From the sequence record LC494302.1: a stretch of 64,000 bases of DNA. The stretch is one strand, 5' to 3'. This document shows, piece by piece, positions 1-35,637 of this stretch (position 1 is the stretch's first letter; each line of letters starts with the position of its first letter). The notes under the pieces were generated by a model that saw only the letters and a list, made by a program, of their open reading frames with translations, was not told the DNA's origin and ran no database searches. Source of the stretch: Escherichia phage SP27. Made by a program: the position numbers and the translations under genes.

Positions 1-361
1 TTGCATTACATTAAAAACACCTGTTAGTATTGTAATTAAAAAAAATAAAGATGATGAATTGACATTATCTATTGGTCGTGATAAAATCATTTTAAGTAAT
101 TTGTCTGAAGAAGAATTCTTTCAAAGAAGTACTATTATCGATATGAAAGATTTCACATATGAATCATTGGTTGAACTCAATACACGTTTTAACGATATTC
201 AGGAACGATTGCGACCAATTCTTCGTATCGAAGAAGAAGCCTGGATTGAAAGTATTAGGAAGATGCAAGAAATGTTGAAAGAAAATATTAACAATCTGGG
301 TAAAGCTACAATGGAATTTGGTAAAACTTTTAAACTGAACTTTTCAAAGGATCGTAAATGA
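1..361 (+). CDS. hypothetical protein, 5'-partial; FQxST-motif family
   Basis: Frame open from window edge (TTG at 59 is internal); contains EEEFFQRSTII motif shared with ~15 paralogs. Confidence 0.45.
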   Translation, partial: CITLKTPVSIVIKKNKDDELTLSIGRDKIILSNLSEEEFFQRSTIIDMKDFTYESLVELNTRFNDIQERLRPILRIEEEAWIESIRKMQEMLKENINNLGKATMEFGKTFKLNFSKDRK

Positions 362-813
362 AAATTGATAATTTGATTCATGTTTTAGGATCTTTACATA
401 AAATATTATCACATCTACATGAGATAAAGAAACTGGGATTTAACATCTCAAATTCAATTGAAACTACATTTAAATATCAATCAATTACTGGTGATGGTTA
501 TTACATAATCGAATATACTTATGAAACCGATCCAGACTTCTATCCTCTTACGTTGAGAATTTATCCAACAAATCCGAGAGGAATTCACGACATATCATCA
601 ATTTCACTTGATCCAGATGGTGAAACGAGTATTGAATACAATAATGATTCAAAACCAGAATTTTACATTGATGATATTAAAATGATGTTCAACGATGAAT
701 ATGTTTTCCAACAAAGTACTGTGCATGATGTTGGAAGTACTAATGGACAATTTTGGAATACATGTTATTATCATATGATTGAAATTTGTAAATTATTAAA
801 AGGCGATGATTAA
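358..813 (+). CDS. hypothetical protein, FQxST-motif family
   Basis: 151 aa ORF, ATGA overlap with neighbour; C-terminal EYVFQQSTVHDV motif. Confidence 0.5.
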   Translation: MKIDNLIHVLGSLHKILSHLHEIKKLGFNISNSIETTFKYQSITGDGYYIIEYTYETDPDFYPLTLRIYPTNPRGIHDISSISLDPDGETSIEYNNDSKPEFYIDDIKMMFNDEYVFQQSTVHDVGSTNGQFWNTCYYHMIEICKLLKGDD

Positions 814-1196
814 TGAAATACAGCATTGAAGTACATTACACTACAGGGGACACTGAAACTGAAGATTCAGTTACCAATACATTGGATGTTCAATGGGAAT
901 CAAAGGATGAGGCAGTTGTAGCATTACAGTCTTTGAAAGAGCATTGGGTATTCTTTAAGAAACTCGATGATGCATATAGTAACGAACGTGCGACAATAAT
1001 CGATGAAGCCAAACATAAAGAATGGTTTGATCCAATGTCATGTGAATTCTCTTTCTTTGTAAAAATTGGAGATGAAAAAATTCCAGTACGTACACCGTGG
1101 AACGGCTACTTTGAAACTCTTCATAATGCACGAGTTGTCGCTGTTGATAATCCTGAACAAATCGATTTCGATTCATTGGACTGGAAAAAACTATGA
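813..1196 (+). CDS. hypothetical protein
   Basis: 127 aa ORF, start overlaps upstream stop (TAATG). Confidence 0.45.
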   Translation: MKYSIEVHYTTGDTETEDSVTNTLDVQWESKDEAVVALQSLKEHWVFFKKLDDAYSNERATIIDEAKHKEWFDPMSCEFSFFVKIGDEKIPVRTPWNGYFETLHNARVVAVDNPEQIDFDSLDWKKL

Positions 1197-1636
1197 CAGT
1201 ACTGCACCAATTGAAGAAGGTTAAGCATCCAGTTGTATATGAGGACTGGAAACGTCAGAAGCTGATGGGTGATTTTTATTTCCCAAAATCTAAAGTACTA
1301 GCAACGTCAAAAGCTATATACTTGAAATATAAGGATGAAGATTGTTTGTGTATTCAAATGGGATTCCATCCTAAAGTTGGTTTGTTTACAACAAATCAAA
1401 CATTTTATAAATTTAGAATTCAAAAAGATACATTTAGTATTCATATCGAAAAGCATGATGTACAAGATACAATTTATCGTGTGGAAAGTGAGCCTTTGAA
1501 TCTTGTTGAGATTCCGTACAATAATTTAGAAGAAATGTACTTTCAGCAGTTGACAATACAAGAAGACTTTGGTATGATAGGACTTCAAGAGTTAGAGATG
1601 ATTAAACAAATTCGTGATATCTACTTTAAGGAGTAA
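1193..1636 (+). CDS. hypothetical protein, FQxST-like family
   Basis: 147 aa ORF; C-terminal EEMYFQQLTIQEDFGMIGL motif. Confidence 0.5.
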   Translation: MTVLHQLKKVKHPVVYEDWKRQKLMGDFYFPKSKVLATSKAIYLKYKDEDCLCIQMGFHPKVGLFTTNQTFYKFRIQKDTFSIHIEKHDVQDTIYRVESEPLNLVEIPYNNLEEMYFQQLTIQEDFGMIGLQELEMIKQIRDIYFKE

Positions 1637-1796
1637 CTATGCCAGTACGTAACAGTACTTCACGCTTTACGCTTCAACAGAAAGCAGATCTTTTGAATAT
1701 GGCAAACAAAGATTCTAATTTTCACTATCTAGTACTCGGTGGTTCAGTTGAAAAGATTGACCTACGTGAGTGTATGAAATAACAAAAGGGGCTAAA

Positions 1797-1967
1797 ATGA
1801 GTTTACGTGAATCATGGGAACAATTTAAAGAAGAGATTGGTTATCGTGGTGTTAAGATTGAACCAATCAATCGTACTGAAAGCATCAAAGCTAGTACTAA
1901 TGGTACTACCTATGATCGTTATGATGAAAAGTATGGTTTACATTCTAAACCAAAGGATACTGAGTAA
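1797..1967 (+). CDS. hypothetical small protein
   Basis: ATG after AAAGGGG RBS; 56 aa. Confidence 0.3.
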   Translation: MSLRESWEQFKEEIGYRGVKIEPINRTESIKASTNGTTYDRYDEKYGLHSKPKDTE

Positions 1968-2106
1968 TGGTGTATACTAATATTTTTACTGGTATTATGC
2001 GTAAATTTATTAATGGTACTGGATACGTATCTAATGACAACGGTAGTACATGGGTAAAAAATAATACGTCTGAATCTTTAGTAAAAAGTCTTCCGTATTA
2101 TAAAGC

Positions 2107-2135
2107 TTGACACATGAAAATGGAGTATGTATAAT
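2107..2135 (+). promoter_or_regulatory. sigma70-like early promoter
   Basis: TTGACA, 17-bp spacer, TGtATAAT extended -10. Confidence 0.5.
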
Positions 2136-2167
2136 ACTCCTATATTAATTAAACGAGGATATACGAA

Positions 2168-2740
2168 ATGGCTGGTGTTGATAAAATTTGTGAATTCAGT
2201 TCAGATTATGAAGGTTACGAAATGTACAAGTCCAAGCGTAATCACATCCAAGTACTGTCAAAGTACCGTAAAGAATTCAGAGGCCACAAAGCAACATTGT
2301 ATGTTTTTGAGAATGGATATTCTGAAGTTTTCACAAGTGGTGGGTACAGTACAGCTAACATGGCACATATCAACCCAAACCCAACTGAAGATGATTGGAA
2401 TAGTGGTAACGCTTTTCGTATTTCAATTTTGAATAAAATGAATCGTTACGACCGTTATTGTACATTCTTTGAAAATATTTCAGAATACAAGCAAGCATTA
2501 AAGAAATATAATCAACGCTTACTAATGAATTATGATTACATTCTTCATGTGCCAACTGTTCCAGGTCAGGTTAATGGTCTGTATACGAATAGTACACATG
2601 ATTTAACTGCGGTGAAGCGTCGCCTCAAACGTATGTTGGGTTGTCGTAATTTAACAATCAAGGTTGTGCGTAATGAATCAATGTATAACTTTTTAGATGT
2701 ACTACACTACACATTGAAGGATAATAATGGAAACGATTAA
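2168..2740 (+). CDS. hypothetical protein
   Basis: 190 aa ORF with GGATATACG RBS downstream of promoter. Confidence 0.5.
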   Translation: MAGVDKICEFSSDYEGYEMYKSKRNHIQVLSKYRKEFRGHKATLYVFENGYSEVFTSGGYSTANMAHINPNPTEDDWNSGNAFRISILNKMNRYDRYCTFFENISEYKQALKKYNQRLLMNYDYILHVPTVPGQVNGLYTNSTHDLTAVKRRLKRMLGCRNLTIKVVRNESMYNFLDVLHYTLKDNNGND

Positions 2741-6676: not shown

Positions 6677-7165
6677 ATGCCAATTCGTGGTGTACCAGAA
6701 CCATTAATGGAAGTTATTAAGCATGTTCGCATTGGAGATCGAGAAGTTAATCTTCGCCGTAATAACATTTATTACTTTAAAACTTCAGAAATGAGTTCTG
6801 TACAGATTGTCATTGGTACATCTATTAAGATTACTCGTGTACTTGATGGTAGTACTGATTTCGTTGAATATAATGTACTTACTAACAAAGTAATACACAC
6901 ATATAAATGGAGTGGGTATAAAACTATTAAGTATGAGTTTGATGTTGCTAGAACTGAAGAAGAACGATTTATGTTAAGTACTATCAATCCAGCAAACTAC
7001 CCTGACCTTGATACATTTTTGCTAATTTTAAAACTGTATAATGAAGCAAATGGGAAAGCGAAGGAGTATGATAGAATTATGTATGAACGCAAAAAAGAAC
7101 GTGCTCAGAAAAGTTATGATCTTTATGATAACCCATATGTAAAATATAATAAGGGGAGAAAATGA
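6677..7165 (+). CDS. hypothetical protein, FQxST-like family
   Basis: ATG after AAGGAG RBS; EEERFMLSTINP motif. Confidence 0.45.
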   Translation: MPIRGVPEPLMEVIKHVRIGDREVNLRRNNIYYFKTSEMSSVQIVIGTSIKITRVLDGSTDFVEYNVLTNKVIHTYKWSGYKTIKYEFDVARTEEERFMLSTINPANYPDLDTFLLILKLYNEANGKAKEYDRIMYERKKERAQKSYDLYDNPYVKYNKGRK

Positions 7166-7566: not shown

Positions 7567-7741
7567 GACATTTGATGAGTGGTTTAATCTACACTATAAT
7601 ATAAATGCAGCAGATATATACTATTTTAAGCTTGAATTGTATATATCATTGCGTAACCCAATTGAGTACTATAACAACATTATCAATTGTGATGATTTTG
7701 GTACATATTTTAGTATAGCCGTTATGGATATTAAGAGATGA
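7556..7741 (+). CDS. hypothetical small protein
   Basis: 61 aa ORF. Confidence 0.3.
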   Translation: MQPKTFDEWFNLHYNINAADIYYFKLELYISLRNPIEYYNNIINCDDFGTYFSIAVMDIKR

Positions 7742-7917
7742 CACATGAAGAATGGATGGCAATGATGAAAAAACGTTATGACCAGTTTGGAAATGGATTT
7801 ATTGATGGTCATTTCGATATTTTACGAGACAAATATAAGTTCGAATCATATGTACTAGATGAGAATGGAAATCGTTGGTTCATCTATGAGCTTGCGGTTA
7901 GAGACAAAAAAATATAA
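7738..7917 (+). CDS. MTHEEWM-family small protein
   Basis: 59 aa ORF starting MTHEEWM; paralogous to four others in window. Confidence 0.45.
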   Translation: MTHEEWMAMMKKRYDQFGNGFIDGHFDILRDKYKFESYVLDENGNRWFIYELAVRDKKI

Positions 7918-7995
7918 TAACCTTTTCCATTGTCCATTGCAATGCTTTCTTTACAGAAGAATAAATGAAACACTTAATTGAACTGGATACATAAA

Positions 7996-8172
7996 ATGAC
8001 ACATGAAGAATGGATAGAGTCACTAAAATATAAACATGATCATTTTGGATTTGGTATACGCCAAGGCCATTATGATGTTTTGAACGATAAAAAAACGTTC
8101 GAATCATTGGTTTTGGACGAAGATTCCAACCACTGGTTCATCTACGAGCTTGCTATTAGAGATAAAAAATAG
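7996..8172 (+). CDS. MTHEEWM-family small protein
   Basis: Starts MTHEEWI; ends WFIYELAIRDKK like paralog at 7738. Confidence 0.45.
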   Translation: MTHEEWIESLKYKHDHFGFGIRQGHYDVLNDKKTFESLVLDEDSNHWFIYELAIRDKK

Positions 8173-8177: not shown

Positions 8178-8513
<336 letters not shown>

Positions 8514-8514
8514 A

Positions 8515-8697
8515 ATGACACACGAAGAATGGATGTCCAAACAGCATAAAGAACATGACTGCTTTGGGAATGGCATTCGTCAGGTACATTATGATATATT
8601 AAGAGATGAAAATCTTTTCAGGTCATATGTTTTGGATACCAGAAAACCCTGGTTTATATGCGAACTGGCATTTAGAAAGTCAAATAATCAAAACTAA
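8515..8697 (+). CDS. MTHEEWM-family small protein
   Basis: Starts MTHEEWM, paralog. Confidence 0.45.
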   Translation: MTHEEWMSKQHKEHDCFGNGIRQVHYDILRDENLFRSYVLDTRKPWFICELAFRKSNNQN

Positions 8698-9502: not shown

Positions 9503-9663
9503 ATGACGCATGAAGAATGGATGAATGACATTAATTTTAGATATGCAGGTTTCGGTAACTGGAGAAAGTATCATTGGGAAATCATGTCAGACCCAGCAGA
9601 ATACGATAAACTTATAAACCATGAAGCGTATCCGTGGTTCTTTATTGAAATAATGGTACGAAC

Positions 9664-9667
<4 letters not shown>
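9503..9667 (+). CDS. MTHEEWM-family small protein
   Basis: 54 aa starting MTHEEWM. Confidence 0.4.
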
Positions 9668-9829
<162 letters not shown>

Positions 9830-9837: not shown

Positions 9838-10247
<410 letters not shown>

Positions 10248-10251
<4 letters not shown>

Positions 10252-10708: not shown

Positions 10709-11473
<765 letters not shown>

Positions 11474-11491: not shown

Positions 11492-12161
<670 letters not shown>

Positions 12162-12180
12162 AGAGGTACTTCGAGTATGC

Positions 12181-12304
<124 letters not shown>

Positions 12305-12307
12305 ATA

Positions 12308-12394
<87 letters not shown>

Positions 12395-12449
12395 GACTGC
12401 CAAACAGCTTGAAGTACTTTGTAGTGCTGCACCTATGCCGACACTTGGC

Positions 12450-12550
<101 letters not shown>

Positions 12551-12562
12551 TATCTTACTTCT

Positions 12563-12652
<90 letters not shown>

Positions 12653-12658
12653 TACACT

Positions 12659-13084
12659 ATGAAATACAACATTGTTAAAATGGTGAACTATGTATTAAAA
12701 AACAACGCATGGTCACTGCATGATGTACAATTAGAAGATATTGGTGAAGTTAGAGTATTTTGCTATGATCCAGATTTGAATCAAACCACAGATTTGAGTA
12801 AATGTTTTAATATTTTTCTTGGTTATGAATTCAATAATCATTTTTATTCATTTGATGTGTATTTTGAAAAAGTTATATTCAGAAGTTATGAATGTGATAA
12901 TGAAGATTATGATTATGATGATGAATCAATTGAATTGAATGTTAACGATATTGATACTGAAGAAAAATTCTTCCAGTACTGCCTCCTTAACGACATATTA
13001 GGATTAACATTTGAGGACATTAAAGCTATACTTAAAGTTCAAAAGTTGATTCCAGAAGAGGTACTAAATCCATTAAATGACTAG
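12659..13084 (+). CDS. hypothetical protein, FQxST-family
   Basis: 141 aa; C-terminal EEKFFQYCLLNDILGLTFEDIKAIL. Confidence 0.5.
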   Translation: MKYNIVKMVNYVLKNNAWSLHDVQLEDIGEVRVFCYDPDLNQTTDLSKCFNIFLGYEFNNHFYSFDVYFEKVIFRSYECDNEDYDYDDESIELNVNDIDTEEKFFQYCLLNDILGLTFEDIKAILKVQKLIPEEVLNPLND

Positions 13085-13442
13085 TCTAATAGTACGTATA
13101 ATGCAAGATGTTTGTAATAACCTTTATACAGGCAATTTTGACGATCCGAACATAAAAATATTATGTTATGATGGTTTTACAATGGTACATCCATCCTATT
13201 CAAATAATATCTACGTAGCATATACAGGTGAAAATCTATTATATCAATTTGATATATATAGTACAATGACAAAGATAATTTTGGATGCCTCTAAACCAGC
13301 AATCTTTATTGCTTCTCATGATTACCATTACACTGAAGAATCACTATTTCAGTACTCAATGATTAATGACATTGGTGGGTTGACATTGGATGAGGTTAAT
13401 GCTATACTAGCTGTCTCACGTTTGGTTAAAACCCACAATTAG
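13077..13442 (+). CDS. hypothetical protein, FQxST-family
   Basis: 121 aa; C-terminal EESLFQYSMINDIGGLTLDEVNAIL. Confidence 0.5.
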   Translation: MTSLIVRIMQDVCNNLYTGNFDDPNIKILCYDGFTMVHPSYSNNIYVAYTGENLLYQFDIYSTMTKIILDASKPAIFIASHDYHYTEESLFQYSMINDIGGLTLDEVNAILAVSRLVKTHN

Positions 13443-13451
13443 GAGATTCAT

Positions 13452-13643
13452 ATGTTCTGGAATTTATTATGCTTGTTTGGTCGTACATTGGTTCTTGCTA
13501 TTATTCATACACCTGGTATTCGTAATTATGTTTCTTATGAATTTAAGAAAAATTATCACAACAATACTGAAGTTCGTACAACTAAGATGTGCAAAGACTT
13601 CAAGGTAGATGTTCCACCATTCAAGAAGTACGAGGATGAATAA
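13452..13643 (+). CDS. hypothetical small protein
   Basis: 63 aa, GGAGAT RBS. Confidence 0.3.
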   Translation: MFWNLLCLFGRTLVLAIIHTPGIRNYVSYEFKKNYHNNTEVRTTKMCKDFKVDVPPFKKYEDE

Positions 13644-13927
13644 TGGAATTCATTGTTGCACCTGATGAACTTAAAACATTCACGTTCAGAGATAATAACA
13701 ATTATCCTTATACAAATCATTCATTGAATTCATTACATGTTATTGCAATCATTGCATCTGAATACAGGGATAATCCATGTATTGATTTTAAAACCACTGA
13801 TGGCGAATATACATGGGTGTTCCCAAAAGATAAATATAGTTATCAAGGGGCAGTAGAAATTCGTGACTCGATTCTAAAACAAATCGAAGATGGAAATACT
13901 CATCCTAAACTAAACACTCAGTACTGA
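13643..13927 (+). CDS. hypothetical protein
   Basis: 94 aa, TAATG-coupled. Confidence 0.4.
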   Translation: MEFIVAPDELKTFTFRDNNNYPYTNHSLNSLHVIAIIASEYRDNPCIDFKTTDGEYTWVFPKDKYSYQGAVEIRDSILKQIEDGNTHPKLNTQY

Positions 13928-13940
13928 AATCGTTTAACCC

Positions 13941-13995
13941 GATAGCTTCTAGTCAGTACTGATTCCTCCTTATGTATAGAAGCTATCACTTTTTT
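13941..13995 (+). terminator. intrinsic terminator with TCAGTACTGA in loop
   Basis: Stem GATAGCTTCTA/TAGAAGCTATC followed by TTTTTT. Confidence 0.5.
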
Positions 13996-14114
13996 ACGTA
14001 TAATGATATTACCCTCAAATTCATTATATTCGTTACCCTCTAACAGTATCTTTTTATTCCTCTTGGATGCTGTAATTTAGAAGTTGACTTTTTAACTTCT
14101 ACTGTGTTATACTT

Positions 14115-14145
14115 AAGGCTGATTCGATGAATCGGCCTTTTTTCT
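14115..14145 (+). terminator. intrinsic terminator
   Basis: GGCTGATTC-gat-GAATCGGCC hairpin plus T6. Confidence 0.5.
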
Positions 14146-14161
14146 TATATAGGTGAATGCA

Positions 14162-14581
14162 ATGAGTTATTTGTTTACTTTAATTGATAAGTATGTTGAC
14201 ATTGTATACCGTCAAGTTTGTAGTGATACGTTTGAAACAAAAAACCCAATTAGAGATGGCATTTTTGATGTTGTCGTTGGATCATTTTTGAATGGATACA
14301 CAGAGACATTATACAACAGTAATAATATTTTTATTTCAGTTCAATCCAGACATACATCAGACTATGCTGTTAGCATTGATATTTGGGAAAATAATATAGA
14401 AATAGATATAACGGAACATACTAACATTCATGTTGATGATACATTTAATCAATTAACTGAAGAAATGTACTTGCAGTTGAATTTTGTACATGATCTTACA
14501 AATATCAGTTATGATACATTAAGGAAAATATGTTTTCTTAGTGGGGTGATCCGTAGTAATATGAGTAAGGATAGGAAGTGA
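14162..14581 (+). CDS. hypothetical protein, FQxST-like family
   Basis: Start at MSYLF; C-terminal TEEMYLQLNFVHDLTNISYDTL. Confidence 0.45.
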   Translation: MSYLFTLIDKYVDIVYRQVCSDTFETKNPIRDGIFDVVVGSFLNGYTETLYNSNNIFISVQSRHTSDYAVSIDIWENNIEIDITEHTNIHVDDTFNQLTEEMYLQLNFVHDLTNISYDTLRKICFLSGVIRSNMSKDRK

Positions 14582-14582
14582 A

Positions 14583-14999
14583 ATGTTAAAAATTCCACCT
14601 AAGTCGTTAACACATCTTATTGAATGTGGTGTAATATTTTCCGAAGGTGATACCTCATCATACACATTGGTCGATGAACCTTATAATTTTTCATACCAAT
14701 CTTATAAAAATAATTCTAAAATTTCTTGTAGATATGCTGAAAACATATTAATAGATGTTTCGTTACATAATGTTCCGAAATTTTACATTGATATCTTTGG
14801 TGATTCTTTGACAATTCGAACATATGATTATTTTATTAATAAAGACCTCTTGAGTCTTCCAATTGAACATGATACTATAGATTCAGAGATGTTCTTTCAA
14901 CTATCAACAGTTTACGATTTACAGGGTTTAACTGTTGAGCAGTTGAATGGAATATTTGAGATTTCACGAAACATACGAAGCAGGAATAAAAATGTCTAA
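14583..14999 (+). CDS. hypothetical protein, FQxST-family
   Basis: 138 aa; C-terminal SEMFFQLSTVYDLQGLTVEQLNGI. Confidence 0.5.
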   Translation: MLKIPPKSLTHLIECGVIFSEGDTSSYTLVDEPYNFSYQSYKNNSKISCRYAENILIDVSLHNVPKFYIDIFGDSLTIRTYDYFINKDLLSLPIEHDTIDSEMFFQLSTVYDLQGLTVEQLNGIFEISRNIRSRNKNV

Positions 15000-15393
15000 T
15001 ATTTTAAATGAAAAAACAGTTGATGTTGTTATTGGTGTTCTTAACACCGCAACTTCATTTCAGAAGAAACACAGTGTTGTATACTTTGGTGAAGATTGTT
15101 GGCTGAACTATACTAATAATTCGTTTATAATTCGTGTAGAGGCTGATGATATTGGATTAACCGTTCAGGTAGGATGTGCCAAAACTGACAAACAAATCAC
15201 TGTCATTGTTGATAAACTTACGTCTTCTTTTTATGATAGTATAGATGATTGTGAACACTATAGTTCAACATTTTATGATACAGAAGAAGAACATTTTATG
15301 GAAAGTACTGTTCAAGAGTTAGCTATTCCATATAAGCTAATGAAAGCCGTGAGTGATTTAATTTTAAAATATAAAAAAAATAGGAGTTACTAA
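14992..15393 (+). CDS. hypothetical protein, FQxST-family
   Basis: Start at MSNILNEK overlapping upstream stop; C-terminal EEEHFMESTVQELA. Confidence 0.45.
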   Translation: MSNILNEKTVDVVIGVLNTATSFQKKHSVVYFGEDCWLNYTNNSFIIRVEADDIGLTVQVGCAKTDKQITVIVDKLTSSFYDSIDDCEHYSSTFYDTEEEHFMESTVQELAIPYKLMKAVSDLILKYKKNRSY

Positions 15394-15839
15394 TGCAATT
15401 TAATGGTAAAGTTTCCAAAGTAGGTTTGGTTTTTGAAAACTGTGAATTTGTTGATATTGATGTAAAGAATGTTTTATGGATGCATATTGCTGATGAGAAG
15501 ACTCTTTGTAGCCGTTTTTCAAACGGACTGACAATTAGTACTGTTATCGGTGAGTTCGGTATTGCATTACGCAGCAATACACCATCGGATTTCATGGACA
15601 ACTCTACACTGTTAGACCGTTTAAAAATGCGTGACGTTACACACGTTTATCTATATGATACTAACGGTGTTGAACAGCGTTATGTAGTTGAATGGGCTAA
15701 TTATAACCTTAGTGATCAATATTCAGTAAACCAGCGTGTTCAAATCACCCCTGGTGGTAATATTGTGTTTGTTAGTTCAACTGGTAAATTAATCAGTGTA
15801 GATGATAAAAACATTGACCTATTCACAGCATATAACTAA
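15393..15839 (+). CDS. hypothetical protein
   Basis: 148 aa, TAATG-coupled. Confidence 0.5.
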   Translation: MQFNGKVSKVGLVFENCEFVDIDVKNVLWMHIADEKTLCSRFSNGLTISTVIGEFGIALRSNTPSDFMDNSTLLDRLKMRDVTHVYLYDTNGVEQRYVVEWANYNLSDQYSVNQRVQITPGGNIVFVSSTGKLISVDDKNIDLFTAYN

Positions 15840-15850
15840 TACGAGCTTCC

Positions 15851-16270
15851 ATGAAAACAATCAAAATTCATTTCAAAGACACTTGGACAGAAGTAAGTAC
15901 TGGTAATATTCAGGATATTTTATATAGTACTGAAACTATTCATGTTTATGATGAAGAGACTGCTTCCGAGCAGTTAAAAGTTTTGCATCGTAGTGTTGGT
16001 GTGCACACTGAATATGGCATTAAACATACTCGTGAATTACTTAATACTAATCACATTGAAACCCGTAAAGCAAACTTATCAAAAGAAGAAATGTTCGATT
16101 TCATCCTGAACCATAAAGTTCATATTGAGCCTGATGGGTCTATATGGGAGAACACTGCTGGACAAAAAGTGCTGAAAAAATATCATGTTTCAATTGATAA
16201 TGTAAAAATGTCAGGGTATGATTTGGAAGATGCAATTAATGAATATGTATCTAGGCAGAGGGCAAATTGA
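15851..16270 (+). CDS. hypothetical protein
   Basis: 139 aa ORF. Confidence 0.5.
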   Translation: MKTIKIHFKDTWTEVSTGNIQDILYSTETIHVYDEETASEQLKVLHRSVGVHTEYGIKHTRELLNTNHIETRKANLSKEEMFDFILNHKVHIEPDGSIWENTAGQKVLKKYHVSIDNVKMSGYDLEDAINEYVSRQRAN

Positions 16271-16641
16271 TGAGCTTGATAACATTTACAATTATTTGTT
16301 GCATTACTATTGTACTTTGTCGCCTGATTCATGTATACTCATATCATAAAGCGTTGCGAATCGAACAAGAGATTTACAACGAAAACCGAGAACCAGAACC
16401 AGTCAAGAAGCCACCATCACCTTATGGGTTGAAACGTGAGATGCATTCTCAAAGTAAAAAGTGGGGTTATGCAATTACTAAAAATGGCTACATCTATACT
16501 GCAAGTAATGGTTATTTTCAAATTCACCACGAATTAGAAGTGGCAGTTCAAATTTTGTGGGAGATGGAGGACATTGGTGGTTATGAGCGTACTAAGTTTG
16601 AATTCATATCAAATGATCCAGGAACTTCACGAGAAACATGA
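16270..16641 (+). CDS. membrane-anchored hypothetical protein
   Basis: ATG overlapping upstream TGA; N-terminal TM helix. Confidence 0.45.
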   Translation: MSLITFTIICCITIVLCRLIHVYSYHKALRIEQEIYNENREPEPVKKPPSPYGLKREMHSQSKKWGYAITKNGYIYTASNGYFQIHHELEVAVQILWEMEDIGGYERTKFEFISNDPGTSRET

Positions 16642-16786
16642 TATAATTGTTGATGTGGAGAAGAAGGAAGTCGTTATGAAAAAGCAAGCATATAGAATTT
16701 TAGAAGACTTCCATCTAAAAGCATTTATAATGAAGTTCTGTACAGATGAACATCTTACCGGACGAGTAATACGTAAGGAGTTGTAA

Positions 16787-17128
16787 ATGAACTTAAGTTC
16801 AACAATTCAGTACTTGAGCAGTAACTTCGAGAAAATTATTTCTCGCGGTGGGATGATTGTACACCCAGAAACAGAGGAAATGTACATCATTGGATTTGAT
16901 AAAAATTCTTATGATCAAGTACTTGTAATTTCCAAGTTAGAAAGTTATAATGAAGTTGTTCAGTTTTGCTGTACCGAATTTGGTATCTATATTAAAGACG
17001 CTGAAACTAATACAATTTCGCATTATTTTTACCACACACTGATGGGTACTAAAGACTTCGGCTTGAAGTTCGATGATTTAGTACAATGTCACTATATGTT
17101 TAAAACCTTCCCAGCTAGTGGGCATTAA
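16787..17128 (+). CDS. hypothetical protein
   Basis: 113 aa, AAGGAG RBS. Confidence 0.45.
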   Translation: MNLSSTIQYLSSNFEKIISRGGMIVHPETEEMYIIGFDKNSYDQVLVISKLESYNEVVQFCCTEFGIYIKDAETNTISHYFYHTLMGTKDFGLKFDDLVQCHYMFKTFPASGH

Positions 17129-17141
17129 GGAGTATATCAAT

Positions 17142-17930: not shown

Positions 17931-17942
17931 TTAGATAAAATT

Positions 17943-17971: not shown

Positions 17972-17972
17972 A

Positions 17973-19127: not shown

Positions 19128-19243
19128 TTATCCCTCCATTGGTATAATTATTATAACGTATTTATTATGCATATCCAAAAAATGAGCTTGACTGGTGTAT
19201 GATTTGGTGTTATCATGTAGTGAATGAATAATGAGGTGTTTTT

Positions 19244-19828
19244 ATGAATGTTATTGATAATAGATTAGTACTGAAAAATGGAAAAATGACTGTTAAGTTA
19301 TATAAAGATGAAGCTGATTCTTTTATGGCAAAAGCGATTGAAAAATCAGAACGATATAAACTTTTGGCTCCAGCAAGTAAATCGCCATATGGTTTTAATC
19401 ATGCACATAGTCATTTTGTTGGTATGGTGTGTGAGCACGCATCTTTAGTACTTTTTAATGAAATTGAAAACAATACTGGTATTAAACTTAATATCGATCC
19501 AGCATTCCAAAATGAAGCACGTGACGGTGAATGTGATATTAAGGTAAACAACCTTCGTATTGAAGTAAAAGGTATCAAGTATAAATCATGGACTGACTTT
19601 GGACCATGTGTTAGTACTCGACAGTTAAAAAATATCCAGAAAAAAGCTGACGTAATACTATGGGTATTGTATAATGAGAAAAAACAAGAGTTCACGTTTG
19701 AGGGATTCAACTATGTAAAAGATATTAGTTCTATCCCAGTTATCCTCACTGGTGTACCAGGGCGACCAATGATTGAAAATCACCCAGTACTCGGTATTAT
19801 GAAACCACTACAGGAGTTACCATTGTGA
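19244..19828 (+). CDS. hypothetical protein; possible PD-(D/E)xK-like nuclease
   Basis: 194 aa; D..ECDIKV..IEVKG spacing weakly nuclease-like. Confidence 0.45.
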   Translation: MNVIDNRLVLKNGKMTVKLYKDEADSFMAKAIEKSERYKLLAPASKSPYGFNHAHSHFVGMVCEHASLVLFNEIENNTGIKLNIDPAFQNEARDGECDIKVNNLRIEVKGIKYKSWTDFGPCVSTRQLKNIQKKADVILWVLYNEKKQEFTFEGFNYVKDISSIPVILTGVPGRPMIENHPVLGIMKPLQELPL

Positions 19829-20052
19829 TTACTGCAACTGTATATCAAGATATCAATGAAGAATTTCATTCTAAAATTGCGTTCTTATCATTTCCTGTAC
19901 TCCCAGTAGTTGGGTCAACGTTGAATCTTACCATTTGTGGGTTTGAGAAATATTATAAAGTTCTAGATATTGAGTACTGTGCTGATGTATATTCATGTAA
20001 TAGTGAAATTGCAATTCCAGTATCAATCGATATTATTGTAAAAGAGGTTTGA
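19825..20052 (+). CDS. hypothetical protein
   Basis: 75 aa, GTGA overlap. Confidence 0.4.
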   Translation: MITATVYQDINEEFHSKIAFLSFPVLPVVGSTLNLTICGFEKYYKVLDIEYCADVYSCNSEIAIPVSIDIIVKEV

Positions 20053-23923: not shown

Positions 23924-24889
23924 GTGAAAAAGCTTGATTTAAATACAATTGCCGAAGAAGTTCTGGATGAATGTTTTGCTAATGAAGAAGTCAACACACT
24001 AGAAGCCTTAGATTTCGTTGAAGATAAAGATGATAATGAAGGTAAAGTACAAAGCAGTTTCAAATATAATATTACACTTAAGCGACCACCAAATGTTTCC
24101 AATGAAGATCTAATTCGTGATATTCAAGCTGGTATCAATGTAAAGAAAAACACTGAACTGTTAGTTCGTTACAATTATGGACTGATTATTGATGTAGCAA
24201 GTAAATGTACTTGTTATATCCCATTTGAAGATAAGATTTCATATGGTGTTGAGGGGTTCATGAGAGCACTAAAAACCTTTGATCTTAATAAGAATGTTAA
24301 GTTCATTACCTATGCTTCTTCTAGTATTTACATGACAGTCTATAACGAAAGTTCTGACGCTAACTATATGGTACACTTCCCACGTTATATGAGTGTTCAT
24401 AAGATCAAAGTAAAAAGATTCTGCCAGGAATATATGCGTAAACATGGTGTTCGCCCAACACCTGAAATAATCTCAGAGGGTACTGGGATTGAGATTCAGC
24501 ATGTTAATAATTGTTTATTATTTCAAAGCGAATACACTTCACTGGATGCACCATTAGACGGTGTTACAGATGGTACATTAGGTGACATTATTCATTCACC
24601 TGCTTCTGATTTTAACCTCAATGTTGATAGTATCCGTGCACCTTTACGTTATGCTATCAATGAACTGACTAACGAATTGAGTACTAAAGAACGTGAGATT
24701 ATCCAGCGTGTTCATGGTCTAGGTGAATATGAACCTGAAACGCTTCGTGAGATTGCTGATAATGGTTTTGTTGATGATAATGGAAAATATGTTAAATCCC
24801 GTTCATCAATACACCGAAAGTACAGTGAAGCTATGCAAAAGCTTAAGAAGTTAGTACTTGCAAAAGGGTACGAATACGAAGATTTCTAA
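23924..24889 (+). CDS. sigma-70-family RNA polymerase sigma factor-like protein
   Basis: GTG start after TAGGAG; region-2-like LLVRYNYGLIIDVASKC...GVEGFMRALKTFDLNKNVKFITYA; region-4-like ELSTKEREIIQRVHGLGEYEPETLREIA. Confidence 0.6.
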   Translation: MKKLDLNTIAEEVLDECFANEEVNTLEALDFVEDKDDNEGKVQSSFKYNITLKRPPNVSNEDLIRDIQAGINVKKNTELLVRYNYGLIIDVASKCTCYIPFEDKISYGVEGFMRALKTFDLNKNVKFITYASSSIYMTVYNESSDANYMVHFPRYMSVHKIKVKRFCQEYMRKHGVRPTPEIISEGTGIEIQHVNNCLLFQSEYTSLDAPLDGVTDGTLGDIIHSPASDFNLNVDSIRAPLRYAINELTNELSTKEREIIQRVHGLGEYEPETLREIADNGFVDDNGKYVKSRSSIHRKYSEAMQKLKKLVLAKGYEYEDF

Positions 24890-25978: not shown

Positions 25979-26767
25979 ATGAGCACTATAGATGAACTGA
26001 TTCGACGGAATTCAAAATATTACCAACCATCAGAAATTGTAGGTAACATTACCAAATCAGAGTTTGGTCCAAATACTCGAAAACTCATTCATGTAATGTC
26101 ACGTGATGGCTTTAAATGTGATTGTTGCGGTGAATCTAATGTAGTATTCACTTTACACAAGCACAGTACTAAAGATCGTTATAAATTCAGACCTTATGTA
26201 CTTAAAGGGAAACGCCTTGTACGCATGACGTTAGACCATAATGTACTGGACTGTCTTCAGGGCGGTAATGATAAAGAGAACATGACTGCACTGTGTGAAG
26301 ATTGTAACGCATTACGCCAGCATAAGTTTGCTGAATACAGTGAGTTTAAACACTGGTATCATAACGCGGATCGTTCAATCGAGCCTGACGTTAACTACTG
26401 CTTCATTGAGTACATTAAGAATGCCAAAGATACATACATTCTTAAATCAATGTCACCTATTACCGTGTTTCCTGAGAACCTATTCACTACATTAAAGAAT
26501 AGTTTTATTGTAGGTGATATTGATGCATTCAAGTATTTTGACAAAGGTGCAAAACATTTTGAAATTCAATGTCTTAGTACTGCACTATGTGAACTCATTA
26601 AAATTTACATAAAAGAGTATTTGGGTATTGACAATGTACGTGTACCAGAGTATACTTTTTCTATTGAATTCGATTGTGAATCAATCAAAGAGTTTGGAAT
26701 TCTTTTCAATAAACAAATAGAACTTGCAATTCAAAACGAAATCAAGTACTATACTACTAACATTTAA
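25979..26767 (+). CDS. HNH-family endonuclease
   Basis: CDCCGE ... MTLDHNVLDCLQGGNDKENMTALCEDCNALRQHKF: Cys pairs and H-N spacing typical of HNH. Confidence 0.6.
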   Translation: MSTIDELIRRNSKYYQPSEIVGNITKSEFGPNTRKLIHVMSRDGFKCDCCGESNVVFTLHKHSTKDRYKFRPYVLKGKRLVRMTLDHNVLDCLQGGNDKENMTALCEDCNALRQHKFAEYSEFKHWYHNADRSIEPDVNYCFIEYIKNAKDTYILKSMSPITVFPENLFTTLKNSFIVGDIDAFKYFDKGAKHFEIQCLSTALCELIKIYIKEYLGIDNVRVPEYTFSIEFDCESIKEFGILFNKQIELAIQNEIKYYTTNI

Positions 26768-27743: not shown

Positions 27744-28052
27744 ATGTTTCAAACTAACACTCAAGGTTTTGTAATCATCGATTTGAATCAAAACAGCGGT
27801 TATTGGATGAAACCTACTGACGCATGTATGCAGTTTGATTTTTTAGGTTACAGGATTAGTGTAAGTACTGGTGCTTCTGTACTGAGAGGTGGTTGTATCG
27901 TTGAACATCTGGTAACTGATCCAGAAGGTCGTGAGTATGAAATCGCAGGTTCAGTACAAGATGCCATTATGTTTGTATGTCAGCGTGAAATGAATGGTTC
28001 GAATTCAAATGCACTGACTCATGCTCTTTCTCAAGAAGTGGAGGTTCGTTAA
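27744..28052 (+). CDS. hypothetical protein
   Basis: 102 aa, TGAGGAA RBS. Confidence 0.45.
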   Translation: MFQTNTQGFVIIDLNQNSGYWMKPTDACMQFDFLGYRISVSTGASVLRGGCIVEHLVTDPEGREYEIAGSVQDAIMFVCQREMNGSNSNALTHALSQEVEVR

Positions 28053-28297
28053 TGAAATACATTGTAGCAGTACTCGTCGCATTTCTACTCACTGCATGTG
28101 ATGCTTCTACCAAAGAACGTACAAGTGATTTTGTTCTACCTGCTGAATTAAAAGAAGCAGGGTGTAAGATTTATCGTATGCAACAAGATGGTGCTGGTGC
28201 AACTTTATACACTGTGTACTGTCCTAATGCAAATACAAGTACTGGATACACTAGCGGTAAAACACGAATCAACACTTCCGTAATTCATGGAGAATAA
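28052..28297 (+). CDS. putative lipoprotein
   Basis: Signal peptide with lipobox LLTAC (MKYIVAVLVAFLLTACDAS). Confidence 0.5.
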   Translation: MKYIVAVLVAFLLTACDASTKERTSDFVLPAELKEAGCKIYRMQQDGAGATLYTVYCPNANTSTGYTSGKTRINTSVIHGE

Positions 28298-28299
28298 CA

Positions 28300-28668
28300 A
28301 TGAGCCTTGATACAACACGTGCAGCAGATTTATTAACTCGTCTGAATGATGAAGAATATCTTGCTGAGATAAAGTACAAGCTTGACAAACTTGTTCGAAG
28401 TGCTGAAGTAATTGAAGTTGAAGGTCACTTACCGATGGATCAATACCATAGGTTCAAGGAAGATATGGTTTATTATCCTAATGAAATTTGGATTGAGTGG
28501 CAACATTGGACTAACAAAACTCTTCGCATTGAAGGGTATTGTGTGAAGTATGAAAGTTCACCTGGTGATGTTACAAAAACTCTATCAATTTGGTGTACAA
28601 AAACAAATGAACTCGTTGAGGTGAATTTGAATTATATGAATGGATTCCGTTGGGGTGATGTTAAATGA
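28300..28668 (+). CDS. hypothetical protein
   Basis: 122 aa ORF. Confidence 0.45.
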   Translation: MSLDTTRAADLLTRLNDEEYLAEIKYKLDKLVRSAEVIEVEGHLPMDQYHRFKEDMVYYPNEIWIEWQHWTNKTLRIEGYCVKYESSPGDVTKTLSIWCTKTNELVEVNLNYMNGFRWGDVK

Positions 28669-28940
28669 TTAAAAAACTCTTGACTGGAATCATTGTGTGC
28701 AGTACAATGTTTCTTACAGCATGTAATGATGACGGCAGGTTTAGTGCAAAAGACTTAGTTCGTCAGGATTGTACATTCACAGGTAAGTCTTTTATTAACG
28801 AGTATGAAATATGTACACAATCAGGTCGTATCTGTGGTGGTTGGGAAAAACGTCAGGAGCGATTGTATGTATATGAATGCCCTGGACATCACAACAAAGT
28901 ACTAAGCACACACAAACTTGTTTATGATAAGGTTGAATAA
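28665..28940 (+). CDS. putative lipoprotein
   Basis: MIKKLLTGIIVCSTMFLTACNDD signal plus lipobox. Confidence 0.5.
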   Translation: MIKKLLTGIIVCSTMFLTACNDDGRFSAKDLVRQDCTFTGKSFINEYEICTQSGRICGGWEKRQERLYVYECPGHHNKVLSTHKLVYDKVE

Positions 28941-29308: not shown

Positions 29309-29509
29309 ATGTTTACTTTATATCTCGCAGTAGTTCTCACCAATGGTGAAATCACTCGTACTATTGGTGAAGGTGTATATAAAACACCAGACCAGTGCTA
29401 CTCTGCCACTCATTGGCCTCGCGATAGTGGGGATGAAACTCGCACTGAATTCAAATGCATGAAAGTAAAAGGTGATTTTGTTAACCTTAAGGTTATCGAG
29501 GCGAAATAA
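29309..29509 (+). CDS. secreted small protein
   Basis: Start at MFTLYLAVVL; 66 aa. Confidence 0.4.
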   Translation: MFTLYLAVVLTNGEITRTIGEGVYKTPDQCYSATHWPRDSGDETRTEFKCMKVKGDFVNLKVIEAK

Positions 29510-30027
29510 TGGATATTAATGAGTTGTTGAAATTAGTGTTTAATCGTGAACGCCGCGATACAAGACCAATTGAATATCAAGATGTGATACGCATTGAAAC
29601 TGATTTCTGTTATGGTAAAACAACTCATGACCTTTTGAATCTCTCTGGAAAACGCTATGCTGATGTTTGTTTTTCAGAGAGAAGTGATGGTTCAGAAATA
29701 ACGAGTACTGATATTGTTTGTTACGCACGCAGTGCTGATAAATCTTATGAAATAGAACTTATATATTCCCCTAGTTCTAAAACAAATCATCACCGCCATA
29801 TTTTATATGATGTTTATACACCACCTGGTATTGCTGAATATTTTGTTATTGATTATAGTACTGAAGAAAATGTGTTTCAACAAAGTTTGATTCATAACTT
29901 TGAGGTGAATGATCCATTAGTACCAAAGTTGTTCAAACTACTTGACACCATAGATGTTGATTTTGAATTTGTTATGTGCATTAGAACTTCTTTATTCAAT
30001 GAATTCATGGAACTTTTTAATATATGA
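29509..30027 (+). CDS. hypothetical protein, FQxST-like family
   Basis: 172 aa; TEENVFQQSLIHNFEV near C-terminus. Confidence 0.5.
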   Translation: MDINELLKLVFNRERRDTRPIEYQDVIRIETDFCYGKTTHDLLNLSGKRYADVCFSERSDGSEITSTDIVCYARSADKSYEIELIYSPSSKTNHHRHILYDVYTPPGIAEYFVIDYSTEENVFQQSLIHNFEVNDPLVPKLFKLLDTIDVDFEFVMCIRTSLFNEFMELFNI

Positions 30028-32066: not shown

Positions 32067-32426
32067 ATGAAGAGTTATATAAAATTAATAGCACTTGTGT
32101 GTGCATTATTTTCATGTTTTAGTTATGGTGCAGCAGCAGAAACATATTGTCGTAGTACTAAGGGAACGTGGCATGTATTGACTAACGACCCTAGAAATGG
32201 TAAAAATATAGTTGTTGATGGTGTGATTTATCGTTTTAAAGTAGAAAGTATTATCGGTAATAAAAAAATCTCGACTTATAGAGATGATTCTGGTACATTA
32301 GCAAACGTAATATTAATTGTAGACCCAAGAACTGGTAATGGTGATATCTATATAGTAATTTACTTGGACTCATCGGTACGCCGTGACCTAGATATAGATA
32401 AATTGAACTTACACTGTGAAATATAG
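32067..32426 (+). CDS. secreted protein (paralog of 32818)
   Basis: Signal peptide MKSYIKLIALVCALFSCFSYGAAAE; AGAGG RBS. Confidence 0.5.
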   Translation: MKSYIKLIALVCALFSCFSYGAAAETYCRSTKGTWHVLTNDPRNGKNIVVDGVIYRFKVESIIGNKKISTYRDDSGTLANVILIVDPRTGNGDIYIVIYLDSSVRRDLDIDKLNLHCEI

Positions 32427-32815: not shown

Positions 32816-32817
32816 TC

Positions 32818-33192
32818 ATGAAAATTATTTTATTTTTTGTATGTATGTTAATGTGTGGATTGTCATATGCTGAACCATTGGAAGGTTTAGTTTGTACAGA
32901 TGGTAATATTAAACATATCTATCAAGGTGATAGTGACGATCGAGATATTGTATATATTGATGGACAATCATATACGTTTGTTAAAGAGCATACAGTAGGC
33001 GACATTAGCTTCACTGAGTTTTCTAACGACACAGACCCTAACTTCTTAGCGTTTATTGAAGTAGATGTATATGAAGATAGTAATGGCACACAATATGCTA
33101 AATTAGTTATGATGCGTCGTGGTGCTAAAGAAACTAGTTTTGGTGGCTTGTGTAAATATAAGGATTGGTATTATGTTGATTTATCAAAGTGA
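32818..33192 (+). CDS. secreted protein (paralog of 32067)
   Basis: Signal peptide MKIILFFVCMLMCGLSYAEP; GGAGGAAAA RBS. Confidence 0.5.
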   Translation: MKIILFFVCMLMCGLSYAEPLEGLVCTDGNIKHIYQGDSDDRDIVYIDGQSYTFVKEHTVGDISFTEFSNDTDPNFLAFIEVDVYEDSNGTQYAKLVMMRRGAKETSFGGLCKYKDWYYVDLSK

Positions 33193-34196: not shown

Positions 34197-34210
34197 ATAG
34201 AGGATAACAT

Positions 34211-34477
34211 ATGAAGCTTAAATTACAATATAATGGATTTACTTTACGTAATGATACTGAATTTATTAATCGTTCTCCTGGTGCTGAACTGTTTTTACGA
34301 GAGATGAACATTCCTTTCATCATTACTACAGTGGGCGACCGTGAAGTTCTACAATATGCAGAGCATCCGATTATTGATGTTCCTTGGTACTCTGAGCATA
34401 TGTACATGGATATGGCACGTCGCTACAACTGTAAGTTCGTAGTTGAAGGTGATAAAATTACAGTCGAATTTAAATAA
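34211..34477 (+). CDS. hypothetical protein
   Basis: 88 aa, AGAGGATAA RBS. Confidence 0.45.
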   Translation: MKLKLQYNGFTLRNDTEFINRSPGAELFLREMNIPFIITTVGDREVLQYAEHPIIDVPWYSEHMYMDMARRYNCKFVVEGDKITVEFK

Positions 34478-34489
34478 GGTAAATTAAAA

Positions 34490-34783
34490 ATGATCAGTAC
34501 TTCAGTTAATGAAAGCATCGTCGCTGACGTAGAAATGGTTAAAGAATGTGCAGATGAAACTCTTCGTGATATGTACATTAATGATTTAATTACTGAATAC
34601 GGTAGTCGTGGTGTACACGAATTTATTCGTTTAAGTGGAGAGTTGATGAAAAATCGAATTCGTATGAAGCTTAACGTACATCCAAAAGCATGGGCATTTA
34701 CATTAAAATACGCAGAAGATATTGTTAATTTGCGTCGAACTGAAGTATATGAACGTTTGCACAATGGTATGTTAGATAAATGA
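34490..34783 (+). CDS. hypothetical protein
   Basis: 97 aa. Confidence 0.45.
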   Translation: MISTSVNESIVADVEMVKECADETLRDMYINDLITEYGSRGVHEFIRLSGELMKNRIRMKLNVHPKAWAFTLKYAEDIVNLRRTEVYERLHNGMLDK

Positions 34784-34792
34784 TTGTAAAAT

Positions 34793-34819
34793 AGGAATTC
34801 TTAAATGAATTCCTTTTTG
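34793..34819 (+). terminator. intrinsic terminator
   Basis: AGGAATTC-ttaaat-GAATTCCT plus T5. Confidence 0.55.
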
Positions 34820-34835
34820 TTTATAAGGTATAGTA

Positions 34836-35057
34836 ATGAAATATATAGTACTTGTACTGATATTATTCAGTACTGTTGTAAGTGCTAAACAAAAAGAATA
34901 TGTTAAATGTATAAATTATGAAGAGAAATATGTTGAAACATATAAAAAAAGTATAATTAAAAACGTTTCGATTACTAACAGAGCAACAATCATTGTACTT
35001 AAAAATGGGTTAATTATGCTATATAAACCACACGTTAAATGTGAAATTATTAATTGA
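34836..35057 (+). CDS. secreted small protein
   Basis: Signal peptide MKYIVLVLILFSTVVSA. Confidence 0.4.
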   Translation: MKYIVLVLILFSTVVSAKQKEYVKCINYEEKYVETYKKSIIKNVSITNRATIIVLKNGLIMLYKPHVKCEIIN

Positions 35058-35064
35058 GGAAATT

Positions 35065-35637
35065 ATGAATCGTAAAGGTCGTTTTAAAGTATCAAAAAAG
35101 AACAAAAGTTCTAGGTTTAAACCTATTGTTTTAACAGTTAAATCTAACAAAGATTTAACTGCACTTAGTAAAAAGATAATTTCATCTAAGATTGAAGTAT
35201 CATACGTAAATTCATTAAAATATATGAATGTCAAACCACTGGACCAACTCATTTCACTTATATTTGAACGTAATGATTTTGAGATATCAGTAGATGATTA
35301 TAGAGCCTATAATGCTGGTTTCATTAATGTTACTTGTAATAAAAAACTAACTGAGTTGGAAAATTTGTCATGTATAATAAATCTAGATAAAGGTGTTGTG
35401 AAGTACCATTTTGTACATTTCACTAATATCAATAATGGAATGGGTGTACAATCCAGACCTATAGTGCCTACGTGTGATGTTACTAAATTAGCAAAGCTCA
35501 ATGATGAAGAATATTTTCAAGAAAGCATTGTAACTGAGCATTTAGATGATATAATAGCTACTTACAAAGAATGCATATGGGTGTTGAATGCTATAAAACC
35601 TAAATTGTGTTTAATGAATATTGTTCGTGATTTATGA
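35065..35637 (+). CDS. hypothetical protein, FQ-motif family
   Basis: Start at MNRKG after GAGGAAA; NDEEYFQESIVTEHLDD near C-terminus. Confidence 0.5.
   Translation: MNRKGRFKVSKKNKSSRFKPIVLTVKSNKDLTALSKKIISSKIEVSYVNSLKYMNVKPLDQLISLIFERNDFEISVDDYRAYNAGFINVTCNKKLTELENLSCIINLDKGVVKYHFVHFTNINNGMGVQSRPIVPTCDVTKLAKLNDEEYFQESIVTEHLDDIIATYKECIWVLNAIKPKLCLMNIVRDL

Follow-up and report, generated by a model that had tools for sequence, protein, structure and literature searches.

Fifteen small open reading frames (ORFs) of Escherichia phage SP27, located within the first 35,637 positions of the 64,000-nucleotide stretch of record LC494302.1 that we analyzed (referred to as the window), share a short motif around the residues E-E-x-x-F-Q near their C-terminus. 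Our analysis suggests that these ORFs belong to one very large and divergent family of small, mostly acidic single-domain proteins, which tandem duplication would have expanded to about 60 copies per genome, arranged in two clusters and retained singly across phage genera. Regarding their role, we cautiously lean towards an ancient, individually retained expansion of early cytoplasmic single-domain proteins that would act as binders.

Positions 12,000 to 20,000 of the window share 99.5% identity with jumbo myophages of Escherichia from the PBECO4/121Q/G17/slurp01 group, which have genomes of about 350 kb and are kin to Klebsiella phage RaK2 and Cronobacter phage GAP32. Judged by this similarity, the window is part of a PBECO4/121Q-type (RaK2-like) jumbo coliphage. 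Its composition is AT-rich with a GC content of 0.30-0.38, and the + strand holds almost all coding sequence up to about position 50,000.

Fifteen window ORFs share a motif conserved at the protein level

The 15 ORFs had been listed in an earlier note on this DNA, and all of them are present on the + strand at the coordinates given there (Table 1). The first one is cut by the window start, and its full-length counterpart in the near-identical phage E9.1 has 171 amino acids. The consensus x-[ST/D]-E-E-x-x-F-Q-x-[SN]-[TL]-[VI] was found in 15 of 15 ORFs. Among the 14 complete proteins, the distance between the N-terminus and the start of the motif is 86-121 residues in 12 and 149 residues in 35065-35637. 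According to the earlier note the motif usually lies 25-40 residues from the C-terminus, and this is close to the 31-41 residues that we counted in 12 of the 15, but it does not hold for 2-361 (81 residues), 6677-7165 (66) and 29509-30027 (51). Likewise, the proposed extension D-[LI]-x-G-L-T-x-E-x-L can be made out clearly in some three to five members, where it is a feature of a subfamily (phrog_17453), but it is not family-wide, and the estimate of about 15 members is correct for the window, whereas the genome carries about 60. Eleven of the 15 proteins have an isoelectric point (pI) of 4.1-4.9; of the other four, two are close to neutral and two basic. Reading the sequences of the window members revealed no obvious signal peptide.

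Table 1. Family members in the window and promoter-like sites upstream of some of them. E values refer to the full-length family hidden Markov model.
Feature	Position	Strand	Motif core or site	E value	Remarks
Member, truncated by window start	1..361	+	SEEEFFQRSTI	3.8e-9	Long helical C-terminal extension
Member, 151 aa	358..813	+	NDEYVFQQSTV	3e-12	
Member, 147 aa	1193..1636	+	LEEMYFQQLTI	1.6e-16	
Member, 130 aa	6016..6408	+	SEEDEFQKNTT	2.4e-10	
Member, 162 aa	6677..7165	+	TEEERFMLSTI	4e-13	Basic C-terminal tail, pI 9.3
Member, 134 aa	7162..7566	+	SVEEEFQYNLL	1.3e-7	
Member, 117 aa	9898..10251	+	TEEEYFQMSTV	1.6e-24	AlphaFold2 model
Member, 129 aa	10709..11098	+	DEADEFQKRTV	7e-13	Motif alone weakest, clear with full-length model
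Member, 141 aa	12659..13084	+	TEEKFFQYCLL	3e-22	Closest paralogue is 13077-13442
Member, 121 aa	13077..13442	+	TEESLFQYSMI	2.9e-26	AlphaFold2 model
Member, 139 aa	14162..14581	+	TEEMYLQLNFV	4.6e-17	
Member, 138 aa	14583..14999	+	DSEMFFQLSTV	1e-17	
Member, 133 aa	14992..15393	+	TEEEHFMESTV	6.6e-18	
Member, 172 aa	29509..30027	+	TEENVFQQSLI	3.9e-16	C-terminal part longer
Member, 190 aa	35065..35637	+	NDEEYFQESIV	8.6e-9	Basic, pI 9.2
Sigma-70-type promoter-like site (11/12)	9839..9866	+	TTGACT-16-TATAAT		32 nt upstream of 9898-10251; candidate early promoter
Perfect sigma-70 consensus	12249..12276	+	TTGACA-16-TATAAT		Upstream of tRNA-Thr, 12659-13084 and 13077-13442; candidate early promoter

The significance of the motif was evaluated by a leave-one-out analysis, in which a hidden Markov model (HMM) of the 34-residue segment was rebuilt 15 times and searched against the 584 six-frame ORFs of the window. 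In 14 of the 15 runs the omitted member took rank 15 of 584, directly after the 14 training sequences, with E values from 2e-6 to 3e-2, and 10709-11098 at rank 21 was the sole weak case. Comparison with shuffled controls had been named beforehand as a point at which the motif could fail, and here 20 shuffled copies of every ORF yielded no match better than E = 0.3, so that the alignment of the motif is significant. A full-length family HMM retrieved exactly the 15 ORFs from the window (E <= 1.3e-7), with the next ORF at E = 0.084, and a broader HMM trained on the genome again found the same 15. Because the alignment used to train the first full-length HMM already included the window members, it is the leave-one-out analysis that provides the independent support.

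Within the 11 codons of the core, the pairwise nucleotide identity of first, second and third codon positions is 0.58, 0.63 and 0.43, respectively, and the codons chosen for Ser, Gln, Phe and Glu of the core differ among the members. The identity is lowest at the third position and synonymous codons differ; therefore the conservation acts at the protein level, in agreement with the earlier note.

Two additional candidates, the ORFs 48705-49373 and 16787-17128, were dropped with family HMM E values of 0.67 and 8.5, respectively. The former (+ strand, 222 amino acids) contains the motif-like string L-M-F-Q-Y-S-L-I 48 residues before its C-terminus, which may reflect either very remote kinship or coincidence.

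The motif is predicted to be a helix within a compact domain

Structure prediction of members had been suggested as a check, and we used AlphaFold2 for two window members that share 11% identity. The model of 13077-13442, based on a 50-sequence alignment, reached a predicted local distance difference test score (pLDDT) of 88.4 and a predicted template modeling score (pTM) of 0.81, and the model of 9898-10251, based on 111 sequences, a pLDDT of 88.9 and a pTM of 0.81. In detail, the former consists of a helix (residues 4-15), strands at 26-32, 44-50, 55-61, 64-68 and 76-79 and two further helices (87-96 and 104-114), and the latter of a helix (2-14), strands at 18-23, 26-35, 43-52, 57-66 and 74-79 and again two helices (84-93 and 100-116). 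Thus, the order of elements is identical in both models, a helix, a five-stranded beta-meander and two helices forming one compact domain, and the motif is the first C-terminal helix in each of them (E87-I96 in 13077-13442 and E84-V93 in 9898-10251), with a pLDDT of about 86-95 over this segment. The two members share the predicted fold and no unrelated folds appeared at the motif. The interpretation in the earlier note is thus supported in part only: the members are paralogues with an element shared at the protein level, but the idea of unrelated heads joined to a portable module finds no support in such divergent members sharing one predicted compact domain that contains the motif. According to the models, the "module" is the C-terminal helix-loop-helix of a compact alpha/beta domain and not an appended tag.

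In the models, T-E-E-x can be read as a Ser/Thr-x-x-Glu capping box whose Thr, directly ahead of the motif helix, is the putative N-cap, and F-Q-x-S-T-V would form the body of this helix. The last helix opens with a second cap (Thr/Ser-x-[DE]-E), which is T-L-D-E in one model and T-Y-E-F in the other. Conserved positions of the family profile are T91, E92, E93, F96, Q97, S99, T100, V101 and D103; the mean relative entropy is 0.91 bits at profile positions 85-125 versus 0.46 bits at positions 1-84, and the E, F and Q of the motif occur in at least 90% of the members. By our own geometric reasoning on a helical wheel, the conserved positions should lie on one half of the helix and the variable positions 94, 98 and 102 on the other. 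We assume that the conserved half packs against the sheet as structural core, and that the sheet and the loops may have diverged beyond recognition by sequence. The longest window member, 35065-35637, has an extra partial match to the family HMM (profile positions 26-68) within its N-terminal extension, which hints at an incomplete duplication of the sheet region inside this protein.

The N-terminal parts had been described as unrelated. This is true for pairwise sequence comparison, as discussed below, but not for the predicted fold and not for the sequence signal of the pooled N-terminal parts. In a Foldseek search of BFVD, independently built models of other paralogues from the phages UB, PBECO4, CBB and GAP32 matched the model of 13077-13442 with probabilities of 0.92-1.0 at 13-29% identity, and RaK2 models matched more weakly (0.66-0.77). 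A scan of 1.84 billion representative proteins gave 69 significant matches, most of which align across profile positions of about 1-130 and thus beyond the motif. Furthermore, a leave-one-out analysis was carried out with the N-terminal parts only, using 113 real phage proteins, cut to their first 100 residues, as background. The median rank of the omitted member was 17 of 114, with 19 of 21 members below the median and nine of 21 in the top tenth (each p about 1e-4), demonstrating a weak but collectively significant signal shared by the N-terminal parts. The two models, the BFVD matches, the whole-profile alignments and this pooled signal together point to heads and motif being one diverged domain.

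About 60 copies per genome in RaK2-like jumbo phages

For a census of the family we assembled the complete genome of phage EC22.5-2 (351,992 bp), whose position 308,902 is equivalent to the first position of the window, and repeated the HMM search until it converged. This search retrieved 60 members at E < 1e-3, all on the + strand, and zero matches among reversed or shuffled ORFs. Together the members comprise 9,189 residues or 27.6 kb, which is 7.8% of the EC22.5-2 genome. A first cluster of 35 members extends from 57,051 to 86,352, and the window's cluster, with 22 members including the 15 of the window, from 302,975 to 342,960; the remaining three are located at 138,901, 151,726 and 152,332. 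A plain pattern search found the motif in about 65 ORFs of this genome. Just upstream of the window, a near-identical phage carries seven further tandem members and the full-length form of ORF 1-361. As a related phage has 593 ORFs (PMC11895373), about 60 members mean that roughly one gene in ten belongs to the family.

The cluster at 57-86 kb contains short forms of 103-125 amino acids with the motif at residue 58-73 and long forms of 150-190 amino acids with 45-75 residues after the motif, an example being five tandem "W-D-S-E-E-Y-Y-F-Q" copies at 68,114-70,447. BLASTP detects 78 of the 1,770 member pairs, mostly neighbors, and 38 members are singletons, a picture that would fit with an old expansion by tandem duplication. 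The content of this cluster also varies between phages that are otherwise about 99% identical, with a coverage of 60-86% and matches broken into several pieces (EC22.5-2 positions 57,000-81,900), suggesting that members were recently gained, lost or rearranged there.

The earlier note had also proposed an HMM search of wider protein collections. The matches in a collection of 5.8 billion proteins, in a representative library and in BFVD are from this clade of phages or from uncultured contigs of its type, and on this basis the family appears to be specific to RaK2-like jumbo phages (PBECO4, 121Q, GAP32, CBB, RaK2). The representative library contributed 69 clusters at 50% identity, all with a length of 83-209 amino acids, and no fused domains or recorded Pfam domains were found among the matches in the three collections. 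At least 11 members are present within 50 kb of GAP32 and at least 11 within 20 kb of a metagenomic contig, and the motif is the same across genera and metagenomic relatives.

Orthologues of 9898-10251 are 58% (JNE01), 39% (Munch) and 33% (Kae01) identical, and a counterpart is recognizable in GAP32. The sigma factor of the phage, encoded at 23,924-24,889, shows 57% identity to JNE01, 37% to Kae01 and 35% to GAP32. Accordingly, 9898-10251 diverges no faster than the sigma factor (58 vs. 57% in JNE01, 33 vs. 37% in Kae01), which argues that the copies are individually maintained and do not represent a transient gene accordion. Across the genera of the clade the sigma factor itself is only 35-59% identical.

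Promoter sequences suggest early transcription of the window cluster

Between positions 1 and 36,000 of the window, nine perfect TTGACA-N16-18-TATAAT sites are located on the + strand, compared to an estimated chance expectation from base composition of about 0.05 perfect sigma-70 sites per strand. If sites with at least 11 of 12 matching positions are counted, there are 23 on the + strand versus one on the - strand. The same bias is found genome-wide in EC22.5-2, with 97 versus 11 sites (at least 11/12) and 30 versus 0 perfect sites on the + and - strand, and these sites accumulate in the regions of 30-60 kb and 300-350 kb, with the window's cluster lying in the latter region. Two of the sites upstream of members are included in Table 1. 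The small-gene region also encodes the sigma-70-family factor mentioned above (23924-24889) and an HNH endonuclease (25979-26767), both on the + strand.

The T4-type late motif TATAAATA is absent from positions 1-36,000. In the whole 64-kb window only two copies were found versus 13.5 expected, indicating strong avoidance, and both lie on the + strand just past the last member (36167-36174 and 36815-36822). The transition between the early-type region and late genes might lie at this pair. Both copies are located just upstream of ORF starts, at 36211 and 36840.

For phage CBB, the equivalent region, with short hypothetical genes, RpoD-like promoters and a sigma factor, was proposed by the authors to be early and to serve host takeover (PMC5259590). 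In related records (E9.1, PBECO4, G17, phAPEC6, 121Q and others) no member is labeled as a virion protein, though neighboring genes are. The previously suggested role in packaging thus finds no support in the annotation, which is indirect evidence, nor in the position of the window cluster in a sigma-70 promoter region without late motif. From these sequence features we infer that the window cluster is transcribed early and that its proteins are probably cytoplasmic.

The family is not recognized as one unit in databases or literature

The motif had not been recognized when it was first noticed, and searches of curated protein libraries likewise gave no significant match. A Pfam search with ten members, and then with 111 aligned members (E <= 1), returned nothing consistent, with no family matched by more than five members; NCBIfam and PADLOC gave no match, and the best hit of a sequence profile search against the PDB had E = 0.28. 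The Foldseek search against BFVD returned uncharacterized proteins only, and all confident matches were from this phage clade. In PHROGs, each window member matches over its full length a family of unknown function, and the 15 members are distributed over 13 families (phrog_17453, 21500, 23719, 32367, 33143, 34619, 38341, 24027 and others). Between these families there are only weak cross-matches over the motif, and the superfamily is not recognized as one unit.

A literature search with the motif strings found nothing relevant, and papers on PBECO4/121Q, RaK2, CBB and Sharanji contain general remarks on paralogues but no account of a family of about 60 copies. In RaK2, nearly 10% of the proteins are paralogues, and the present family is not described there (PMC3622015). 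A similar expansion is known from a survey of jumbo phages, which reported about 35 zinc ribbons in phage G (PMC7824862). The known expansions resemble the present one in that dozens of small paralogues are clustered in a very large phage genome, but fold and motif of the present family are different. What is newly recognized is one family with its motif and predicted fold, whereas as a kind it is a lineage-specific expansion in jumbo phages, which is already known.

Interpretation and alternative explanations

In the interpretation towards which we lean, the window cluster would be expressed early from host sigma-70-type promoters and give rise to non-virion products, and each paralogue would most likely be a cytoplasmic binder that holds a different host or phage target via its own variable surface, formed by the sheet and the loops, and these targets might be connected with host takeover, defense evasion or host-range functions. 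In two-layer alpha/beta folds the open face of the sheet often binds partners, for example in Polo boxes and MS2-type coat proteins.

Several points weigh against this interpretation. Comparing ten subfamily profiles of the N-terminal parts only (motif and C-terminus removed) by hhalign, one of the 45 pairs was significant, namely 13077-13442 and 12659-13084 with a probability of 84% and E = 8e-6, and due to this single pair sequence alone cannot prove homology over the whole length. The model of 9898-10251 was built on a family-wide alignment, which could draw a divergent member to the family fold. The near-invariant polar residues Glu, Gln and Ser/Thr of the motif could form a functional rather than a packing surface. 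Furthermore, the cluster at 57-86 kb differs in the lengths around the motif and contains few strong sigma-70 sites, and both fold and timing are extrapolated to it from the window cluster. Moreover, the orthologues of 9898-10251 diverge at about the same rate as the phage sigma factor and thus not unusually fast, which speaks against a simple arms race.

The main rival is shared docking, a refined form of an idea in the earlier note, in which the polar and conserved side of the motif helix (Glu, Gln, Ser/Thr) would be exposed and bind one hub. This hub might be a chaperone or protease of the host, RNA polymerase or a factor of the phage, and the about 60 paralogues would be adaptors for different cargos. 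The much stronger conservation of the motif compared with the rest of the protein, its identity in all genera and metagenomic relatives, its retention in the 57-86 kb cluster despite different flanking lengths and the presence of an annotated ATP-dependent protease in the phage are in favor of such a role. We nevertheless regard it as unlikely, since in the confident models the motif helix is built into a compact domain, the T-E-E-x and T-x-[DE]-E stretches look like common helix caps, and both F and V are typical of a protein core. A combinatorial adaptor array, in which an exposed Glu/Phe/Gln/Ser-Thr face docks to a single hub and the variable sheet of each paralogue brings in a different target, is distinctly improbable in our opinion; if true, it would be a phage-encoded targeting system at a scale not yet described for bacteriophages.

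A role of the terminal helices in homo- or hetero-oligomers, which could build combinatorial assemblies, is compatible with the other interpretations, and we consider it rather unlikely. Models for such a role are the coat protein dimers of single-stranded RNA phages and Mam33/p32 (gC1qBP), a very acidic protein in which seven antiparallel strands follow one helix at the N-terminus and precede two at the C-terminus, and which assembles into a doughnut-shaped homotrimer. The order of elements is the same as predicted for the phage family, and most family members are acidic as well. On the other hand, Mam33/p32 has seven strands versus five in the family models, and there is no sequence similarity to PF02330 (MAM33), which is not among the 25 families listed in the Pfam scan of the 111 members (E <= 1). 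The resemblance is therefore best treated as a weak fold analogy and not as membership.

It is very improbable that the motif is a processing or packaging signal, i.e., a 3C/NIa-type cleavage site or a capsid-targeting tag as in T4, with the proteins being cleaved or packaged. The site of the tobacco etch virus (TEV) protease is E-N-L-Y-F-Q-S/G, and E-E-E-Y-F-Q-x-S resembles it with the same spacing of E, Y and Q as in the general TEV/NIa site E-x-x-Y-x-Q-(G/S). But the residue after Q is variable in the family (Q, L, Y, M, E, K or R) and rarely G or S, a helix within the domain is predicted for the segment, and the likeness is probably a coincidence. Jumbo phages do package paralogous internal proteins, and the internal proteins of T4 also have a short sequence in common while being otherwise different small proteins. 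This capsid-targeting sequence sits at the N-terminus, is removed by cleavage and belongs to late proteins that are packaged, whereas the motif described here is an internal predicted helix encoded in an early-type region with sigma-70 promoters and without late motif, and none of the members is annotated as virion protein. Finally, a chance recurrence of a short acidic-aromatic word in an AT-rich, compositionally biased genome is refuted by the shuffled controls, the leave-one-out ranks of 14 of the 15 members and the lack of decoy matches in reversed and shuffled ORF sets, and it also conflicts with the location of all members on the coding strand, their similar ORF sizes and the retention of the motif in other genera.

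In a well-sampled group of enterobacterial phages with genomes of 350 kb, a single unrecognized family accounts for about one tenth of the genes, which are at present scattered over "hypothetical protein" entries and separate PHROGs. Its recognition makes about 8% of these genomes accessible to annotation, provides a defined motif with a predicted fold for mutation and structure work, and gives two compact clusters for deletion. If the paralogues are host-directed binders, they would represent a rich source of small proteins that inhibit bacterial proteins or defense systems, and may help to explain the large genomes and, in some cases, the infection of several genera. Since therapeutic use against E. 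coli, Klebsiella and Salmonella is being proposed for these phages, the function of a tenth of their genes is also a question of safety.

Additional features of the window

A second and unrelated paralogous family consists of five ORFs of 54-66 amino acids on the + strand (7738-7917, 7978-8172, 8497-8697, 9503-9667 and 9664-9828), which contain M-T-H-E-E-W-[MI], end with W-F-I-x-E-L-A and are interleaved with tRNA genes. Six tRNA genes are located between 8200 and 12642, and one of them was identified by ARAGORN as a tRNA-Ser with the unusual anticodon ACT (11128-11219, + strand). Moreover, small ORFs on the + strand at 28052-28297, 28665-28940, 32067-32426, 32818-33192, 34836-35057 and 38784-39203 start with signal-peptide- or lipobox-like sequences (...LLTAC, ...FLTAC), and judged by these starts the six look like a scattered set of small secreted proteins or lipoproteins.

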